Source: Bacteroidota bacterium
Lineage (GTDB): Bacteria; Bacteroidota; Bacteroidia; CAIKAF01
NCBI GenBank assembly: GCA_016866335.1
Contig: VGMT01000008.1
Location: 12,049 to 76,048, forward strand
Reading direction: 5' to 3'
DNA length: 64,000 nt
Part shown: positions 2,058 through 60,756 of the stretch, piece after piece
Layout of the letters: each line of letters begins with the position of its first letter
Numbering within the stretch: the first letter of the stretch is position 1
Notes under the pieces: model-generated
What the model saw: only the letters and a program-made list of their open reading frames with translations
What the model was told of the DNA's origin: nothing
Databases searched by the model: none
Made by a program: the position numbers and the translations under genes

Positions 2058-3965
2058 ATGCAACCTGAAGAAATTCTGTTTTCCTATTGGGGCCACCGGC
2101 AGTTCCGGCCCCTTCAAAAGGAAATTGTAGAATCTGTATTAGAAGGGAAAGACAGCCTTGCACTTTTGCCAACAGGGGGTGGAAAAAGCATTTGCTTTCA
2201 GGTTCCCGGAATAATGCTACCCGGATTATGCCTTGTCATTTCTCCCCTGATTGCCTTGATGGAAGACCAGGTTTTAAATTTAAAACAAAGAGGAATTTCA
2301 GCCTATGCCATTCGAAGCGGCCAAACAACAGGAATCATTCGATCAATTTTGGACGAAGCCTCTGACGGTAAGGTGAAATTTCTGTATGTATCGCCAGAGC
2401 GCTTAACCTCTGTACTTTTTCAAGCCTACCTTCCGTATTTAAAACCTAGTTTGATAGCTGTAGATGAAGCCCATTGTATTTCACAATGGGGTTATGATTT
2501 CAGGCCTCATTATTTAAACATTGCTGGGATTCGCCCCTGGTTTAAGGACGTGCCTGTTTTGGCTCTTACCGCCACGGCCACGCCCGATGTTGTTGAAGAC
2601 ATTCAAGCTAAATTAGGATTTTCAAAGCCAAATGTGTTTCAGAAATCCTTTAAAAGAAGCAACCTAACCTATGGCGTGACCGAAACAGACAATAAGCTTG
2701 ATCGGCTCTCTATTTTTTTAAAAAAACAGCCTGGTTCGGCCGTTGTATATGTGCGCAACCGAGCAAAATGTGAGCGCATTGCTGAATGGCTCAAAAACCA
2801 AGGCTGGGATGCAGATTATTACCACGCAGGAATTCCAAACGCAGAACGAAGCAAAAAACAATCCTATTGGATTCAGCAACCCAATGCGATAATGGTGGCG
2901 ACCAATGCTTTTGGAATGGGTATTGATAAAAGCAATGTTCGTGCCGTAGCACACCTAGATTTACCAGATACCATAGAAGCCTATTTTCAAGAAGCCGGGA
3001 GGGCAGGCCGAGACGAGAACCCTGCCGTAGCCTTGTTGATGGTTTCTGATGATGACCGAGCAACCTTAAAGGAGAATTTGGAGTTTCAATTCCCTAATTT
3101 GGAAACCATTGGACGAATCTATGAAGCCCTATTCAAAGAAACGTTCATTACTTTAGGAGAAGGAGCGGGGCATGTGCTTGAAGTGGATATTGAACCCTTG
3201 GCTAATGCTTTAAAACTGGCACCACAGCAATTACATTCGGGCTTAGGTTTATTGGAGCGAGGAGGATACATTCAGGTTATTGAATCTGCAGAGGACATTT
3301 GCTACCTTAAGCTTAAAAGCGAACCACAGCAGCTGCGCAGTATGGTTGTTTCTAAAAAAGCCATTCAGCTTTGTGAACGATTGATGCGAAAAATTCCGGG
3401 TATTGCAGATGAAACCAAAGGCATTAGAATGGAACAGCTAAGAAGATGGACCTATACTGAAACAGACGATGTTTGGAAGGTACTTTTGGGCGAGTTGCAA
3501 GAGCGTGGGGCATTGAATTACTTTTTACCTGAACCAAACCGATGTATTTTAAGGTTGCTTTCTGAACGGGTCCCAAAATCCCATATTCGCCTTTCAAATG
3601 AGGTTTATGGACTAAGAAGGAAAATTGCTGAAGAAAAAATGAAGGCAGTAGAGCACTACGCTTTTGACAAAAAAAAATGCCGGCTGCTAAAGTTGTTGAG
3701 TTATTTTGGAGAAGTAGATACCCTTGCATGTGGACAATGCGACGTGTGCATTTCAAAAGAAAAGGCCAAAAATTTGGAAGAACTGTTTTTTGAGGCCAGA
3801 AACGAAAAAATGGAATGGAGGTTAGAAGAAATCCGCGACAGGTTTCCAACAATTAGGAACTTCAACCATCCGATTTTTCGGGAATGGGTGGAGTCTGGCC
3901 TAATAAGTGAAATTAAGCCAGGGTTGATTCGATTCAATATTGAAGCAGAGCAGCGCCCCAAGTAA
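2058..3965 (+). CDS. recQ: ATP-dependent DNA helicase RecQ
   Basis: Helicase motifs LLPTGGGKS and DEAHCISQWG (DEAH box) are present. The protein is 635 aa with C-terminal RQC/HRDC-like regions, and the start is 9 nt after the preceding gene. Confidence 0.85.
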   Translation: MQPEEILFSYWGHRQFRPLQKEIVESVLEGKDSLALLPTGGGKSICFQVPGIMLPGLCLVISPLIALMEDQVLNLKQRGISAYAIRSGQTTGIIRSILDEASDGKVKFLYVSPERLTSVLFQAYLPYLKPSLIAVDEAHCISQWGYDFRPHYLNIAGIRPWFKDVPVLALTATATPDVVEDIQAKLGFSKPNVFQKSFKRSNLTYGVTETDNKLDRLSIFLKKQPGSAVVYVRNRAKCERIAEWLKNQGWDADYYHAGIPNAERSKKQSYWIQQPNAIMVATNAFGMGIDKSNVRAVAHLDLPDTIEAYFQEAGRAGRDENPAVALLMVSDDDRATLKENLEFQFPNLETIGRIYEALFKETFITLGEGAGHVLEVDIEPLANALKLAPQQLHSGLGLLERGGYIQVIESAEDICYLKLKSEPQQLRSMVVSKKAIQLCERLMRKIPGIADETKGIRMEQLRRWTYTETDDVWKVLLGELQERGALNYFLPEPNRCILRLLSERVPKSHIRLSNEVYGLRRKIAEEKMKAVEHYAFDKKKCRLLKLLSYFGEVDTLACGQCDVCISKEKAKNLEELFFEARNEKMEWRLEEIRDRFPTIRNFNHPIFREWVESGLISEIKPGLIRFNIEAEQRPK

Positions 3966-6445: not shown

Positions 6446-6913
6446 TTGATGAACAAAGCTACTAAAAACCCATCCTCATTATCTTTGAGCATGAAAAACA
6501 TGAGTCGAAACGGATTGGCCGGGGCCATTTTGGGCTTGTTCGGTGTTGTACTTGGAGCGCTTGGAGCCCATGCCCTAAAAGGGATTCTAAGCAACGATGC
6601 GCTGGAAAGCTACAAAACCGGAGTGTATTATTTGCAATGGCATGCAAGCCTTATTTTGTTTCTGGCCTTTATTTTCAAATCAGAAGTAACCACTCCAAAG
6701 TATGTTCGTTGGGGTATTCGTTTCTTCTTTATTGGAATAGGTTTGTTTACCGGATCTATATTGGGTTTGGTCTTTCTTTCTACCTTAGGTTTAAATGCCA
6801 GATTTTTGGGGCCGATTACTCCATTGGGGGGATTTAGCCTTATGTTGGGCTGGTTTTGCCTTATACTGAATTTTCTTCAGCGATTAAAATACCGAAATAC
6901 CGATGTCAACTAA
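6446..6913 (+). CDS. DUF423 (YgdD-like) small membrane protein
   Basis: There are four predicted TM helices, including a GALGAHAL motif. The true start may lie at an internal Met (MKNMSRNG). Confidence 0.55.
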   Translation: MMNKATKNPSSLSLSMKNMSRNGLAGAILGLFGVVLGALGAHALKGILSNDALESYKTGVYYLQWHASLILFLAFIFKSEVTTPKYVRWGIRFFFIGIGLFTGSILGLVFLSTLGLNARFLGPITPLGGFSLMLGWFCLILNFLQRLKYRNTDVN

Positions 6914-7265
6914 AACTCTTTTTGCTTTGTTCCTATTGACTTTCCTTTCTTGCATTGGAAAAAAAAGTGCCCTTGCCCCCATTCAACCCGAAGAATCGGC
7001 ACCGGTATTTTGTTCCATTTCGTTTTTTAGCATTGGCTACGGAATAGATGGGCAGGGTTTGAAATCAGTCCAAAATTGGGCTCAACAGAAAAAAGACTCG
7101 GTGGTACTTCAACAAACCCCTTGGGGGCGAGAGGGAGAGGTTGATGTCTGCCTTCGAAGTATTCATTATGAAACTGAAATCCAAAGGTGGTTGACGGATT
7201 TAAAGGGCATCCTTGCTAGGGCTAAAAACTGCCGTATTTCAAATGAAAAATCGTGCCGAAAGTGA
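6903..7265 (+). CDS. hypothetical lipoprotein
   Basis: A signal peptide with the lipobox-like LLTFLSCIGK is present. No recognisable domain was found. Confidence 0.4.
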   Translation: MSTKTLFALFLLTFLSCIGKKSALAPIQPEESAPVFCSISFFSIGYGIDGQGLKSVQNWAQQKKDSVVLQQTPWGREGEVDVCLRSIHYETEIQRWLTDLKGILARAKNCRISNEKSCRK

Positions 7266-8955: not shown

Positions 8956-9717
8956 ATGGGACGGGGTCGAAATGCCATTTTTGCCCTGTTCGTATTTTGG
9001 GTTTTAACAATAGCCCTTGCCTGCAACCCAAAATGGGTGGCGGTGCAATCCGATGCTTCCTTTTTATCGCTCAATCAAATTAAAGGAGATTCTTTGGCTG
9101 AAGCCCTACTGAAACCCTACTCCGACTCGGTATCAAAAAGCATGGGGCGCGTATTGTGTCATTCTGCCAAAGCCCTTCCCAAAATAAAAGGTTCAGCCGA
9201 AACCGCCCTGGGCAATTTAATGAGTGACATTGTATTAGATAGAGCGAGAAAAATTCAGCCCGAAGTTCAGGCATCTTTGCTCAACCTGGGTGGCCTACGG
9301 GCATCATTACCAGAAGGCCCTATCGCCTTGGGTAACGTGTATAGTTTAATGCCCTTTGACAATCGAATTGCGCTTGTAAAATTAGGTCCAAAAGAAAAAA
9401 AAGAAATGTTTCGCTACATTGGCGAACACCCCGGCACACCCTTTTCTGGATTTGAACTTCGGTGCGAAAATCAAAATTGGATGGGTTTTTTAAAAGGGGA
9501 ACCCATTCCAGAAAACGATTCCTTCTACGTAGCAACGTCCGATTTTTTAGCCCAAGGAGGCGATAAAATGAATTTCTTTTTAACCAATCCCTTGTTTTTT
9601 GATCCCGGTGTTCTACTTAGGGATGCTATCATTTCTTACATGGTAGAATCCCAACAGGCTGGCAAAAACATCCATAGTCAATTGGACAACCGAATAGTTC
9701 CCTGTACCGAAAAATGA
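8956..9717 (+). CDS. 5'-nucleotidase C-terminal domain protein (lipoprotein)
   Basis: A signal peptide with lipobox LTIALACN is present. It resembles the UshA C-terminal substrate-binding domain, and the stop overlaps the next gene by 4 nt. Confidence 0.6.
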   Translation: MGRGRNAIFALFVFWVLTIALACNPKWVAVQSDASFLSLNQIKGDSLAEALLKPYSDSVSKSMGRVLCHSAKALPKIKGSAETALGNLMSDIVLDRARKIQPEVQASLLNLGGLRASLPEGPIALGNVYSLMPFDNRIALVKLGPKEKKEMFRYIGEHPGTPFSGFELRCENQNWMGFLKGEPIPENDSFYVATSDFLAQGGDKMNFFLTNPLFFDPGVLLRDAIISYMVESQQAGKNIHSQLDNRIVPCTEK

Positions 9718-10667
9718 ACCGCAGAACATTTATTAGAACGGCCGGTATTGCAAGCCTAGGAATTGGATCGGCTGGAAAGGCCATTGGCAAGGAGTTTCTT
9801 TTTAAAACCAATGCCGCCGAAAATGGGCTTAAACGGCTGGTCATTTTGCATACAAACGATATGCACAGCCATTTGGAACCGTTTTCGGAAACAGATCCCA
9901 AATATGCTGGGCAGGGAGGTATGGCCCGAAGGGCATCATTGATAAAACAAATTAGAGCCGAAGGACATTCAACCTTGTTGTTGGATGCAGGTGATGTTTT
10001 TCAGGGCACGCCTTATTTCAATTTGTTTAAGGGGGAGCCAGAGTTTAAAATGATGTCGGCGATGGGTTACGATGTCGGAACCCTAGGAAATCATGATTTC
10101 GACAATGGAATCGAGGGCTTGGTTGATATGATGCGTTATGCCCAATTTCCCTTCGTAAATGCAAATTACCTCTTATCGGATACTCAACTTGAGGGGAAAG
10201 TTAAGCCCTATACCATTATTCAAAAAGAAAGCTTGAAAATTGGGGTTGTAGGAGTAGGTGTTGACCTTCAAGGCCTAGTTAGTCCATCCTTAGTGGGAAA
10301 GGTAAGGTATTCCAATCCAATTCCTGTAGCTCAGGAACTGGCAAATCGGTTAAAATTTGATTTCGGCTGCCACTACATTATTTTGTTGTCGCATTTGGGC
10401 TATTCCTATAAAGGAAATCAGGTATCTGATCTTGTTTTGGCAGAACAAACCGAGAACATAGATTTAATTGTGGGCGGCCATACCCACACCTTTTTGGAAA
10501 AACCAACCTTGATTAAAAACCAGAAAAATCAAGCTGTTTTAGTAAGTCAGGCCGGCTGGGCTGGTTTACTTTTAGGCCGAATTGATGTTTATTTTAGCCC
10601 AAAAGGACATGCCAAGGGCTTTGAATCTTCAATGAATGAAATTTCCAAAAAAACAATAGGCATTTAA
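9714..10667 (+). CDS. metallophosphatase / 5'-nucleotidase N-terminal catalytic domain protein, Tat-secreted
   Basis: A twin-arginine signal MNRRTFIRTAGIASLGIGSAG is present. Calcineurin-like motifs HTNDMHS, GDVFQG and GNHDFD are also present. Confidence 0.7.
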   Translation: MNRRTFIRTAGIASLGIGSAGKAIGKEFLFKTNAAENGLKRLVILHTNDMHSHLEPFSETDPKYAGQGGMARRASLIKQIRAEGHSTLLLDAGDVFQGTPYFNLFKGEPEFKMMSAMGYDVGTLGNHDFDNGIEGLVDMMRYAQFPFVNANYLLSDTQLEGKVKPYTIIQKESLKIGVVGVGVDLQGLVSPSLVGKVRYSNPIPVAQELANRLKFDFGCHYIILLSHLGYSYKGNQVSDLVLAEQTENIDLIVGGHTHTFLEKPTLIKNQKNQAVLVSQAGWAGLLLGRIDVYFSPKGHAKGFESSMNEISKKTIGI

Positions 10668-17520: not shown

Positions 17521-17690
17521 GTAGGCCTGCGCCCCCGATGGCAGCGGCAGCGACCGAAGTCGGTGCCATGGCTTGCCGCCCCGCGGAGGCGACCTTGGGA
17601 GCCCACGCAGGGGCCAGCAAGCCGCAGCACCGGCAAGGGCGCTACAGCGAACAGCGGGAATAGGCGCCCAAAAAAATCCCTGAAAGCACA
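17521..17690 (-). repeat. GC-rich long-hairpin intergenic element, copy C (inverted orientation, diverged)
   Basis: It shares GGGCTCCCAAGGTCGCCTCCGCGG and GCTTTCAGGG (as reverse complement) with copies at 20197 and 32455. GC is about 65% against a roughly 40% background, and it lies between the WYL gene stop and the ctpA start. Confidence 0.55.
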
Positions 17691-20189: not shown

Positions 20190-20196
20190 TTTGTTA

Positions 20197-20351
20197 AGGG
20201 GGCGGCTGCCGGGCTTTCAGGGCTAATCCGCATCGGGCATTGGGGGCAGAATGCTCAGCAAGTAGCTCCTCGCGTCGCTCTTGCTGCGCGTTCTGCCCTG
20301 CCAATGCCCGCTTTGCGGGTTAGCCTCTTCAATCCCTGCCGCAGGGTGGCG
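20197..20351 (+). repeat. GC-rich long-hairpin intergenic element, copy A
   Basis: The whole unit folds as nested inverted repeats: GGCTAATCCGCA/TGCGGGTTAGCC, CGGGCATTGG/CCAATGCCCG and GCAGAATGCTCAGCAAG/CTTGCTGCGCGTTCTGC. It starts 8 nt after the SDR gene stop and ends 26 nt before the NlpC/P60 stop. Confidence 0.65.
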
Positions 20352-32451: not shown

Positions 32452-32454
32452 ATT

Positions 32455-32606
32455 GTGGGCGGGTTCCGGGCTTTCACAGGTAGTCCGCACCCATGCATGC
32501 TGGCTACAGCGGCTTTGCGCGGGCTCCTAAAGTCGCCTGCGCAGCTCGCGTAGCCATACTTGCATGGTTTTGCGGGCTACCTAGCTCAATCCCGCCCGCG
32601 GCCACT
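32455..32606 (+). repeat. GC-rich long-hairpin intergenic element, copy B
   Basis: It is collinear with copy A in CCGGGCTTTCA, TTTGCGGG.TA.C and TCAATCCC.GCCGC. Its stem AGGTAGTCCGCA/TGCGGGCTACCT covaries with copy A. It begins 4 nt after the upstream stop codon and is convergent with pnp. Confidence 0.65.
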
Positions 32607-48279: not shown

Positions 48280-48402
48280 AATTTATCCCAAAAGGACATT
48301 TTTTTCGCCTTCATTTGGCATATAATCAAGCCATTTATCCCTTATTTTTGCGCAAAACCAATTATTAATCAATGAATTGAGAGGTTAGCCAAATTAACTT
48401 CT

Positions 48403-48807
48403 ATGCATTGCGTTAAATTCTCTTTACAATCAATAATGCTTAAAAACTTTAGCTTTGCAATTGTAAAAATCAAAGTTATGCGCGTGAAAATCGGTTTAGA
48501 AATAAAGAAATTAAGGAAGTTGCAACGGTTTACACAAGAACAAATAGCCCAAAAACTTGACTTGAGTGTTGCTGGCTATTCTAGGATTGAGAGAGACGAG
48601 GTTAATGTTACTTTGGACCGCTTGCAAGAATTGTCGGATGTACTAGGAACAACTCCCGAATTTCTATTGGGTTGGGAGTCAGGCAAAGAAACCAAAACTG
48701 TTAAAGATTCAAGCCTTGATAAAATTGAGAGGCTTTATCAAGATCAAATCATTCAATTAAAAGAGGAAATTGTGTTTCTTCGAAAACAATTGCAAACAGA
48801 AGCCTAA
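48403..48807 (+). CDS. XRE-family helix-turn-helix transcriptional regulator
   Basis: An HTH FTQEQIAQKLDLSVAGYSRIERDE is followed by a predicted coiled-coil tail. The probable start is the internal Met at 48478. Confidence 0.6.
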   Translation: MHCVKFSLQSIMLKNFSFAIVKIKVMRVKIGLEIKKLRKLQRFTQEQIAQKLDLSVAGYSRIERDEVNVTLDRLQELSDVLGTTPEFLLGWESGKETKTVKDSSLDKIERLYQDQIIQLKEEIVFLRKQLQTEA

Positions 48808-48888
48808 TATTGTTCGCTCACCGTTCTTTGTAAATTGATTGTTTTTAAACGAAATCCATCAATTTATTTGAAAAAATGCATTTTTCAC

Positions 48889-48925
48889 TTGACAGGTAAA
48901 TTCTAATCCCGTAGATTTGCTTTTC
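48889..48925 (+). promoter_or_regulatory. candidate promoter (TTGACA-N17-TAGATTTG)
   Basis: TTGACA lies at 48889-48894 and TAGATTTG at 48918-48925. The latter matches the Bacteroidota sigma-AB -7 consensus TAnnTTTG. It points into a gene-free region. Confidence 0.3.
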
Positions 48926-49359
48926 ACTAGTGAATAAAACCTAACCTAATCGTTCTTGCTTCGTCACTTATTGGGGTGGCGAAGAACACTTCGGGTTCAT
49001 AAAGCGTGAAGTCTGATAGCGATAAAACGCACCTTATACGTGAATTTTATCGCTCGGGGGTCTCATGGATGCTTCTTAAAAACAGTGATATTTAGTTCAT
49101 TGGATTTAGGAAGCGGGAACATTGGGAATGAGACGGGGGCGCTGGCTACGCACCCAAATTAAATAACTCGCTTAGTCAAATTGACTGAATGTATTTGAGA
49201 ATGGACAGTTCCAAGCAATACGTCTTTTTGATAAAATCGAGTTGGTTGTAGAAAAACCGGTTTACGCCCAAGGGAGTCCTTCCTGAAAGTTCAGGTTGCG
49301 TCTCTTTTGGGCGTGCCTTCGACCAATCCCTTATCCAATTTTCCAGCTGTAGAATTGAG

Positions 49360-49503
49360 CGGCATGCAGCCCGGATTGAACGGGCAGACTGCGCCAGCAA
49401 ACCCCTTAGGCCGTGGGCTGCGGAGGCACGAAGTGACCCCGCAAAGCCGCTGGCCTAAAGGGTTTGCTAAGCTGGATGCAAGTGAAAGCCGGATCAGCTG
49501 CCC
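49360..49503 (-). repeat. GC-rich long-hairpin intergenic element, copy D (inverted orientation)
   Basis: It contains CGCAAAGCCGCTG and GTGAAAGCCGGA..CTGCCC. These match the reverse complement of copy B (CGCAAAGCCGCTG, GTGAAAGCCCGGAACCCGCCC) and of copy A. It abuts the yggS stop. Confidence 0.55.
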
Positions 49504-49509
49504 AAATAC

Positions 49510-50172
49510 CTATCCCCTCAAACCAAATATATCGCTCCCTACTCGTACACAGGTACTCCCCTCTTGAACCGCTAGGGGCCAATCCTGCGACATGCCCATC
49601 GATAATAGTGAAATATGCGAAAATTGGGGTATTAATTTGATTTCATGAAAAAGCGAATTCAACCGTTTAAATTCGGCCTCCACAATCCCTTTATCTGATA
49701 CATTGCTGGCCATGCCCATTAGGCCTTGAATAGAAATATACCCTTGAGCCAAAGGAAAAACCTCGGTTAAAAAAGGGATAACCTCCGAAAAAGGCATTCC
49801 GAACTTGGTATCTTCAGAAGAAATTTGAACCTGTATTAGGGCAGATATTTTTATTTCTAAGCGTCTGGCCTCTTTTAGGATTTCATGAAAAAGCCGCACT
49901 GAATCGAGACTATGGATTAAATAAACACTTTGAATAAGGGGTTTCACCTTATTCCGTTGCAAATGACCAATTAAATGCCAGCGAATATCTGACGGCAATT
50001 TACTCGCCTTTTCAAGAAGTTCTTGGACCTTATTTTCACCAAAATCACGAACTCCTGTTTCATAAAGCTCTAGAATCTTTTCAATGCTGTGATTTTTAGA
50101 GACGGCAAGCAATTGAACATGAAGAGGGATTTCGGCCCTAATCCTTCGGTAATTATCAACCGTAGTACTCAT
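49510..50172 (-). CDS. yggS: YggS family pyridoxal-phosphate homeostasis protein
   Basis: A 220-aa alanine-racemase-N-fold protein with the N-terminal lysine region LLAVSKNHS. Confidence 0.78.
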   Translation of the reverse strand: MSTTVDNYRRIRAEIPLHVQLLAVSKNHSIEKILELYETGVRDFGENKVQELLEKASKLPSDIRWHLIGHLQRNKVKPLIQSVYLIHSLDSVRLFHEILKEARRLEIKISALIQVQISSEDTKFGMPFSEVIPFLTEVFPLAQGYISIQGLMGMASNVSDKGIVEAEFKRLNSLFHEIKLIPQFSHISLLSMGMSQDWPLAVQEGSTCVRVGSDIFGLRG

Positions 50173-60323: not shown

Positions 60324-60694
60324 TGCTGCGCACTCTGCTCCTTTTTGATGTTTCTGGAGGAGAGTTCATTTTAATTGTACTTGCCATTATATTGCTTTTC
60401 GGTTCCAAAGGAATTCCTGAAATTGCTAGGGTTGTAGGCAAAGGAATGCGGGAATTCCGAACCGCCACCGATACCATTAAACGAGAAATCTCTGAATCTG
60501 GCCAATCCATGAAGCAAGACCTGACCAATGAGGCGGTTCGGCCTTTTGATCAAGCTTTTTCTGACGAACATTATCTAAGTCCCCCCCCCAGCAGTTCCTA
60601 CGATGTCGATTTTCAAAGCAGCCCAAACAGCAAGCAGGAAGAAAACACCGACGAACAACCATCGCCAACCGACCTAGAAACACCAAACCCCTGA
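60323..60694 (+). CDS. tatA: twin-arginine translocase TatA/E family protein
   Basis: An N-terminal TM and amphipathic helix (ILIVLAIILLFGSKGIPEIARVVGKGMREFR) are followed by an acidic/Pro-rich tail. The ATG overlaps the E2 stop (TAATG). Confidence 0.6.
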   Translation: MLRTLLLFDVSGGEFILIVLAIILLFGSKGIPEIARVVGKGMREFRTATDTIKREISESGQSMKQDLTNEAVRPFDQAFSDEHYLSPPPSSSYDVDFQSSPNSKQEENTDEQPSPTDLETPNP

Positions 60695-60756
60695 TGTTCA
60701 ACCTTCATGGTAGTATCTTTTCTTTATTCCAACCTCATTTTTAATACTTTAGTGGT

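Follow-up and report, generated by a model that had tools for sequence, protein, structure and literature searches.

A probable accessory structured RNA gene beside a dispersed hairpin repeat in uncultured lake Bacteroidia

Introduction

Orphan structured noncoding RNAs (ncRNAs) of bacteria, such as raiA, OLE, ROOL and GOLLD, have been defined by comparative genomics, and the intergenic palindromic repeats of proteobacteria include the REP/BIME and ERIC families. Elements recalling both types lie side by side in the 64,000-nt stretch of the Bacteroidota contig VGMT01000008.1 analysed here, which is called the window throughout. The largest true non-coding stretch of the window is a gap at 48808-49509, bordered on the left by the stop codon of a HTH/XRE-family regulator gene (+ strand) and on the right by the stop codon of yggS (- strand). 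The reading preferred here, at a probability of roughly 0.6, is that this gap holds a structured RNA gene that is accessory, stands alone and belongs to a new family; a repressor at the start site probably gates it, and a structured repeat follows. Both the RNA and the repeat are conserved in related uncultured lake Bacteroidia.

The RNA shares several features with the raiA/OLE/ROOL/GOLLD type, including a multi-helix architecture, the lack of a coding signal, conservation accompanied by covariation, a partly metagenomic occurrence and a function that is not known. However, none of these families matches here in Rfam 15, whether at gathering score or in E-value mode. The conserved part of the RNA also amounts to only about 200 nt, is found in no more than one uncultured Bacteroidia clade and is variably present between close relatives, which is unlike that type. 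The housekeeping RNAs (tmRNA, RNase P RNA, 6S RNA and signal recognition particle (SRP) RNA) are similar in that they too are stand-alone genes, measure a few hundred nucleotides and have a strong promoter, which is predicted in the present case, but the architecture here is multi-hairpin, as opposed to the rod of 6S and SRP RNA. The absence of the RNA at one related locus (L105, vide infra) also argues against an essential gene.

As to the repeat, it echoes a single bacterial family, the Flavo-1 RNA motif (Rfam RF01705; Weinberg et al. 2010, PMC2864571). Flavo-1 RNAs are multi-copy in Bacteroidetes, lie sense or antisense to transcripts, and have no known function (PMC9723704).

Results and discussion

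Relatives of the locus were collected through a protein database, with YggS proteins 66-71% identical and XRE-family proteins 78-84% identical to those of the window. Their contigs, designated here by L numbers, keep the order aroB-aroA-XRE, gap, yggS-DUF1015-serA-serC, and the gap is 558-906 nt long in most of them. In a scan of the GTDB species representatives with YggS, only relatives of at most 51% identity were found, and no homologous intergenic DNA. Alignment of the relatives divides the gap into two modules that behave separately, namely the structured RNA and then the hairpin repeat. A unit comprising promoter, start-site palindrome and a domain of about 200 nt is common to the window, L121, L095/96, L113/115 and L097-99. 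In addition, about 20 metagenome contigs carry the DNA of the window at or near 100% identity (99.9-100% over the gap).

The conserved 5' domain of the RNA (48957-49155, + strand) contains six helices, and was defined by covariance models and by independent folds. H1 (48959-48984) carries the loop UAUUGGGG, and is followed by H2 (48988-49012) and by H3 (49013-49058), the stem of which is GCGATAAAA/TTTTATCGC. H4 is formed by 49060-49066 with 49128-49134 and encloses both H5 (49071-49114) and an invariant 13-nt internal loop, GGGAACAUUGGGA (49115-49127), while H6 (49135-49155) has the loop CUGGCUA. The 9-bp stem picked out from the window's sequence in the original prediction is the stem of H3, and is replaced in the relatives by different, still complementary sequences. 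A hairpin also proposed at that stage, CGAAG-AACA-CTTCG, does exist (48980-48993), but its arms are shared out to the conserved 3' strand of H1 and 5' strand of H2, so that it is at best an alternative fold. Its pairing would give a four-segment alternative fold, which is not conserved in L113 or L111.

Two covariance models were used, one of H4-H6 (R2) and one of the whole 5' domain (R3), and they match the window, L121, L095/96, L113, L097/98 and L111 at E values of 1e-15 to 1e-59. Conservation and covariation, which had been suggested as a check on the locus, are found for the 5' domain, the covariation over five or six lineages. In the R3 alignment, with 58 pairs, 83.9% of cells are paired, as opposed to 40-50% when the partner is slid by 1-3 columns; 19 of the 58 pairs have changed on both sides, and none of 500 shuffles reaches the observed covariation score. 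The R2 alignment gives the same picture of pairing. Each lineage taken alone folds to the same six-helix architecture by minimum free energy (MFE), and in all five lineages compared the sense strand has a fold 16-24 kcal/mol better than that of the antisense strand and contains 7-10 G-U pairs, versus 1-4 in the antisense fold. The compensatory changes and the strand bias in G-U pairs point to selection at the level of RNA. The domain is 59-75% identical between lineages, versus 29-42% at the four-fold degenerate sites of yggS, which are saturated. In the window itself, the + strand of 48925-49345 has an MFE of -143.2 kcal/mol (z = -6.25, with none of 100 shuffles as good), and the - strand has a z of -4.88.

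No coding signal accompanies this conservation. Open reading frames (ORFs) of 40, 74 and 86 aa are present in the gap, and none is conserved; what translated similarity there is between homologues comes in short stretches, spread over several frames and both strands, and the indels between homologues are not multiples of three. The region had been described as gene-free, and across the homologues no ORF is indeed conserved in one frame. It had likewise been named as the largest non-coding gap, which is confirmed by ORF tiling; the only larger gap in that tiling is an artefact of the overlap of aroB and aroA. Downstream of the RNA there is no gene on the same strand, with yggS and the genes that follow it all on the opposite strand, and the same is true in L111, so the RNA is not a leader or riboswitch.

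Known families are also absent. At gathering score, Rfam 15 (4227 models) gives no match in the whole window and none in 12 related loci, and in E-value mode only weak, sub-threshold matches at chance level were returned for 48600-49700, L111 and L091. RNase P RNA, 6S RNA and SRP RNA have no Rfam match in 48600-49700 even at E <= 10, and ARAGORN finds no tmRNA in the window or in 8 related loci. The earlier exclusion of tmRNA and RNase P RNA by eye therefore agrees with both programs, and the Infernal/Rfam search put forward along with it leaves the window without a match at gathering score. No true match came from viral contigs, phages or plasmids, as nine loose pattern matches in viral contigs failed the model. 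A literature search for a described equivalent found nothing.

Promoter and start-site palindrome

The top promoter-like site in the region, scoring 10/12, is TTGACA-N17-TAGATTTG (48889-48919, + strand), with a -35-like TTGACA at 48889-48894, a 17-nt spacer and a -7 box at 48912-48919. In flavobacteria, TAnnTTTG at -12 to -5 is the -7 box of sigma-A promoters (PMC9723704), and the position of the box relative to this consensus places the predicted start near 48924. Judged by its letters, the site has both elements of a Bacteroidetes sigma-A promoter, TAnnTTTG and, about 17-20 nt upstream of it, a TTG element. L121, L095 and L111 all retain TTGACA-N17-TAnnTT(T/C)G, with 17-nt spacers that are unrelated between lineages, and L113 also has the -7 box; both boxes are conserved in all relatives whose sequence extends to them. 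The promoter-like site of the original prediction is found as proposed, with conserved boxes and a varying spacer.

The predicted start lies within a perfect 12-bp palindrome, TTCACTAGTGAA (48923-48934), which had not been remarked upon before and is the one good candidate for the operator of a dimeric regulator. The palindrome is identical in L121 and L095, and reads TTCATCGATGAA in L113 and TCATCGATGA in L111, so that two symmetric double changes leave it perfect and loop-less. A loop-less palindrome preserved through symmetric changes fits the requirement of a dimeric DNA-binding protein and not that of an RNA hairpin. It has a single exact copy in the window, and a relaxed form is not enriched near the XRE gene. 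No similar palindrome was found upstream of the XRE gene in the window, and nothing links the start-site palindrome to the XRE protein, the gene for which persists where the RNA is absent.

Two other perfect palindromes had been proposed as operators for the XRE protein. Both are present in the window, but neither is supported in that role. The palindrome AGTCAAATTGACT (49169-49181) is not conserved in the relatives, and CCTGAAAGTTCAGG (49282-49295) is the top of a stem-loop that is kept in L121 and L095 with other loop lengths, which indicates an RNA hairpin and not a DNA palindrome.

The 3' region and the size of the RNA

Between H6 and the hairpin repeat lies a variable 3' region (49156-49360, + strand). 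In the window, L121 and L095, which belong to one subtype, this region includes a conserved stem-loop at 49264-49314 on the + strand, with CCCAAGGGAGUCC, a CCUG-loop-CAGG element and UUGCGNCUCU, and in relatives of the other subtype it contains purine-rich and then pyrimidine-rich tracts. A terminator scan of 48300-49700 found no rho-independent terminator, meaning a G+C-rich hairpin followed directly by a T-run, and H6 is followed by a T7 run only in L095. The mature RNA may thus be about 235 nt long, ending shortly after H6, or up to about 585 nt long, continuing through to the hairpin. A small RNA of 400-550 nt had been suggested at first; the comparative evidence backs a structured RNA, and a size in that range is possible but unproven, with only the first 235 nt or so well conserved.

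A second context and variable presence

The R2 and R3 models also match L111, a contig from a more distant organism, in which the unit (9663-10345, - strand) lies beside a CitMHS/Na-sulfate symporter gene and is again convergent with its neighbour. The elements of the L111 unit lie on one strand. An A-rich tract comes first, then TTGACA-N17-TAACTTTG and the palindrome, then H1-H6, in which there are additional compensatory changes. A purine-rich stretch and next a pyrimidine-rich one follow, and the hairpin repeat is present in the sense orientation about 245 nt beyond H6. The recurrence of the unit beside an unrelated transporter gene indicates a gene in its own right, as opposed to a by-product of the XRE-yggS spacer. 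The L111 contig ends 60 nt upstream of the promoter, and the lack of an XRE gene within those 60 nt is uninformative as to any link with XRE.

At the XRE-yggS locus, the slot between the XRE gene and the hairpin can also be filled differently. L091-94 and L122/123 contain a 365-nt structured insert, termed type 2 here, at 6825-7221 (- strand) in L091 and 2830-3240 (+ strand) in L122. These two inserts are 76% identical, their sense folds are 35-38 kcal/mol better than the antisense folds, and they have no R2 or R3 match. Homology of type 2 to the RNA of the window is unproven, as there is one shared 19-mer and local alignment is significant for some pairs only. The empty comparison is L114 (1-110): its flanks match those of L091 at about 99% identity, and precisely these 365 nt are missing. 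A 10-bp direct repeat, GAAAACGAAC, marks the limits of the indel and belongs to a small terminator-like hairpin. This difference may represent an insertion with target duplication; however, given that the divergent L122 also has the insert along with both copies of the terminator-like hairpin, L114 is most simply explained by deletion. In a further lineage, represented by two independent assemblies (L119/L120), the contigs end 60 nt past the XRE stop codon, and repeat or variable content at the slot may be the cause of these breaks.

The locus L105 has no match to R2 or R3, and has only about 100 nt between the XRE stop codon and the hairpin. This spacer was considered as a decayed remnant of the RNA and rejected, with an alignment score of 75 as compared with 70.7 +/- 5.4 for shuffles. 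On the sequences at hand, the RNA is an accessory and dispensable gene, since close relatives are without it.

The hairpin repeat

The gap ends in an extended hairpin of 148 nt (49361-49508, + strand), which had been described as copy D of a GC-rich repeat. The repeat is real, and copy D is one of four copies in the window, all found by a covariance model of the hairpin (R1): copy D scores 157 bits on the + strand and 39 bits on the - strand, and the others are at 17524-17674 (+ strand, 66.7 bits), 20195-20347 (- strand, 50.5 bits) and 32452-32604 (- strand, downstream of pnp, 100.4 bits). The terminator function also attributed to copy D does not find support, as the hairpin has no T-run behind it and is not picked up by the terminator scan. 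Blastn and exact-seed repeat finders missed the family because only the structure is conserved. Base composition changes along the gap: the G+C content is about 0.30 in the flanking spacer, increases to 0.41-0.50 over the body and reaches 0.60-0.64 in the final 150 nt.

A two-block pattern scan of metagenome contigs and contig look-ups provided 14 distinct homologues of the hairpin. In their alignment of 49 pairs, 86.3% are paired, versus 28-48% when slid; 23 pairs have changed on both sides, and none of 500 shuffles reaches the observed score. Folded singly, each of the 14 gives the same rod of about 60 bp, with energies of -66 to -88 kcal/mol. Copy D has an outer stem GCAGC/GCUGC, a long covarying helix, a conserved apex, GCGGAGGCAC-GAAG-GUGACCCCGC, and an A-rich tail directly next to the stop codon of yggS. 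The invariant parts of the hairpin are CCGG/CCGG and UUGAAC/GUGAAA (two A-U pairs, a tandem G.A, an A-U and a C-G), together with the apex GCGGAGGC...CCCCGCAA and a 3' tail rich in A. Among the four copies in the window, the helix sequences differ and yet remain paired, and conservation is seen in the basal motif, GAUUGAA / GAAAGCC, and in the apical one, GCGGAGGCGAC..GGAGCC.CGCAA. At the XRE-yggS locus, copy D is 70-89% identical across lineages with saturated synonymous sites.

Copies of the repeat, which R1 also detects in L103, L107 and L111, sit in short intergenic gaps, and where the flanking genes are convergent there are often 1-11 nt between the A-rich tail and the stop codon of the gene on the other strand. 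Back-to-back pairs of hairpins occur between convergent genes in L107 (10504-10833) and L103 (6993-7401), in opposite relative orientations. A rule that the hairpin is always sense to the upstream gene was rejected, as L107 fits it (sense/sense), L103 is opposite and one L111 copy is antisense to both of its neighbours. An integron attC site and a bidirectional terminator were likewise dropped by eye, with no R''/R' end complementarity and no T-run on either strand.

The likeness to Flavo-1 lies in the basal internal motif, GAUUGAA / GAAAGC, and in the presence of many copies in Bacteroidetes. Two of the four window copies match Flavo-1 weakly on the basal motif AGCCCGGAUUGAA ... GUGAAAGCCGGA, at 17.9 bits (49364-49499) and 17.6 bits (17527-17665), both below the gathering score of 42 bits. 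The hairpin is also about 150 nt long, as compared with 76 positions in the Flavo-1 model, and about 90 nt with a conserved apex of their own replace an interior of about 30 nt. Like REP/BIME and ERIC elements, the hairpin is a dispersed, imperfect palindrome of several copies in short intergenic gaps, often at the 3' ends of genes or between convergent genes. In contrast to those elements, it has no sequence relation to them, and its helix sequences differ widely while pairing and asymmetric invariant loops are kept; unlike REP, no RAYT-type transposase was seen, and the orientation to neighbouring genes is not uniform. The repeat is best filed as Flavo-1-like and REP-like, and as a member of neither.

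Flanking genes

The gene to the left of the gap encodes a regulator of 108 aa (48481-48807, + strand; Pfam HTH_3, 2.3e-15). Its start is the ATG at 48481, and the ATG at 48403 given in the ORF list is probably not the real start. Homologues are 108-123 aa long, and the protein is better conserved across lineages (78-84%) than its neighbour YggS (66-71%); it has a coiled-coil-like C-terminal tail. To the right, yggS (49510-50172, - strand), encoding a pyridoxal phosphate-binding protein of the Ala_racemase_N family, is convergent with the RNA and is the last gene of serC-serA-DUF1015-yggS. The neighbouring genes of the window also include one for a Por_Secre_tail protein. The second-largest non-coding gap, of 433 nt (60324-60756), has no match to Rfam or to the hairpin repeat.

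A proposed mechanism

In the mechanism proposed for the RNA gene, sigma-A RNA polymerase would start at about 48924 from the TTGACA / TAGATTTG promoter, and a dimeric DNA-binding protein would probably gate initiation through the 12-bp palindrome over the start. The transcript would then fold into the six-helix 5' domain of about 200 nt, in which the invariant single strands, namely GGGAACAUUGGGA, the UGGC(A/U) of the H6 loop and the H1 loop, are likely contact surfaces for protein or nucleic acid. The RNA could end after H6 or run through the poorly conserved tail to the 148-nt hairpin, which in the latter case would cap the 3' end, and it may act in trans or within a ribonucleoprotein.

Alternative explanations

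A number of observations weigh against the reading of the gap as an RNA gene, and above all against its longer version. The roughly 200 nt after H6 are only 41-55% identical between lineages, which is close to the level of unrelated sequence, and the full-length folds of L111 and L113 are unremarkable (z of about -1.4); together these make the case for a large RNA weak. No canonical intrinsic terminator was found that would define the 3' end. The covariation comes from only five or six independent lineages in alignments that were fitted to the model, with the H4 columns mis-registered for one subtype by a 1-nt indel, and only two variants of the palindrome stand behind its reading as an operator. 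Finally, the RNA is missing in L105, where the XRE protein is 83% identical, and the slot is filled by type 2 in L091-94 and L122/123, which excludes a core function. One alternative is that the promoter and structured RNA serve the spread or upkeep of a non-autonomous mobile or cassette-like insertion, and not the cell, with the insertion landing beside terminator or hairpin structures. The direct repeat bounding the 365-nt difference between L091 and L114, the absence in L105, the two unrelated contexts of the unit (XRE/yggS and the L111 symporter gene) and the presence of two different structured inserts in one slot all suit such an element. A mobile element is nonetheless unlikely to account for the locus, given that the 64 kb contain a single copy of the RNA and that a total of about 1 Mb of other loci contains no more, except for the orthologues and L111. 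There is no transposase or recombinase nearby, no terminal inverted repeats were seen (no systematic search was made), and there is no convincing direct repeat around the window copy. The spacer of L105 aligns no better than shuffles, nothing matches in viral contigs, phages or plasmids, and L122 is also filled, which makes a deletion between the two terminator-like hairpin copies the simpler account of L114.

The unit is convergent with its neighbour in both contexts, the tail of the hairpin lies 1-6 nt from the neighbour's stop codon, and no canonical terminator separates the promoter from yggS. It is thus conceivable, if improbable, that convergent transcription into yggS modulates serC-serA-DUF1015-yggS in cis, by antisense action or transcription interference. 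However, this would not need a 200-nt domain with covarying helices and invariant loops, the neighbours in the two contexts are unrelated (yggS versus the CitMHS/Na-sulfate symporter gene), and relatives without the RNA keep the same operon. Also very improbable is a regulatory hub at the DNA level, with operators for the adjacent XRE protein and no functional RNA. The adjoining HTH_3 regulator gene and the conserved perfect palindrome at the predicted start would agree with it, but the palindromes AGTCAAATTGACT and CCTGAAAGTTCAGG are unconserved or RNA stem-loops, no related palindrome is found upstream of the XRE gene, and that gene is retained without the region. The compensatory changes and the G-U strand bias also favour selection on RNA. 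The 40-, 74- and 86-aa ORFs could be taken as traces of a decayed gene or of a small-protein gene, but this is the least credible of the alternatives, since none is conserved, the indels ignore the reading frame, and translated similarity is equal in several frames and on both strands, over short stretches only. An uncharacterised structured RNA from a promoter at about 48890-48920, as in the original prediction, is instead backed by the conservation of the boxes and the domain, the covariation, the strand asymmetry, and the lack of an ORF or a known family.

Significance

The small-RNA reading first made from the window's sequence is largely borne out in silico, and the operator and terminator details are not. 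To our knowledge, apart from gut Bacteroides the Bacteroidota have very few described ncRNAs, and their abundant uncultured lineages of lakes have almost none. An RNA with a conserved promoter, a candidate start-site operator and a covarying core outside the curated families is a concrete, testable new RNA class. More speculatively, and with the odds against it, the RNA may be the first known member of a new class of accessory structured RNA genes of uncultured freshwater Bacteroidia. These would be self-contained cassettes, acquired, lost or exchanged at docking positions immediately upstream of a REP-like hairpin. In that case type 2 would be a second cassette, the 148-nt hairpin would be a functional 3'-end or docking element and not a junk repeat, and a cassette would comprise an UP-like A-tract, a promoter, a start-site operator and a catalytic or protein-binding core of about 200 nt.

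With the hairpin repeat, the poorly understood Flavo-1 type gains a longer form, and the repeat shows that such elements can remain under strong structural selection at orthologous sites. For the RNA, its presence and absence between near-identical strains amount to natural knock-outs, from which its function may be approached with metagenome and metatranscriptome data.

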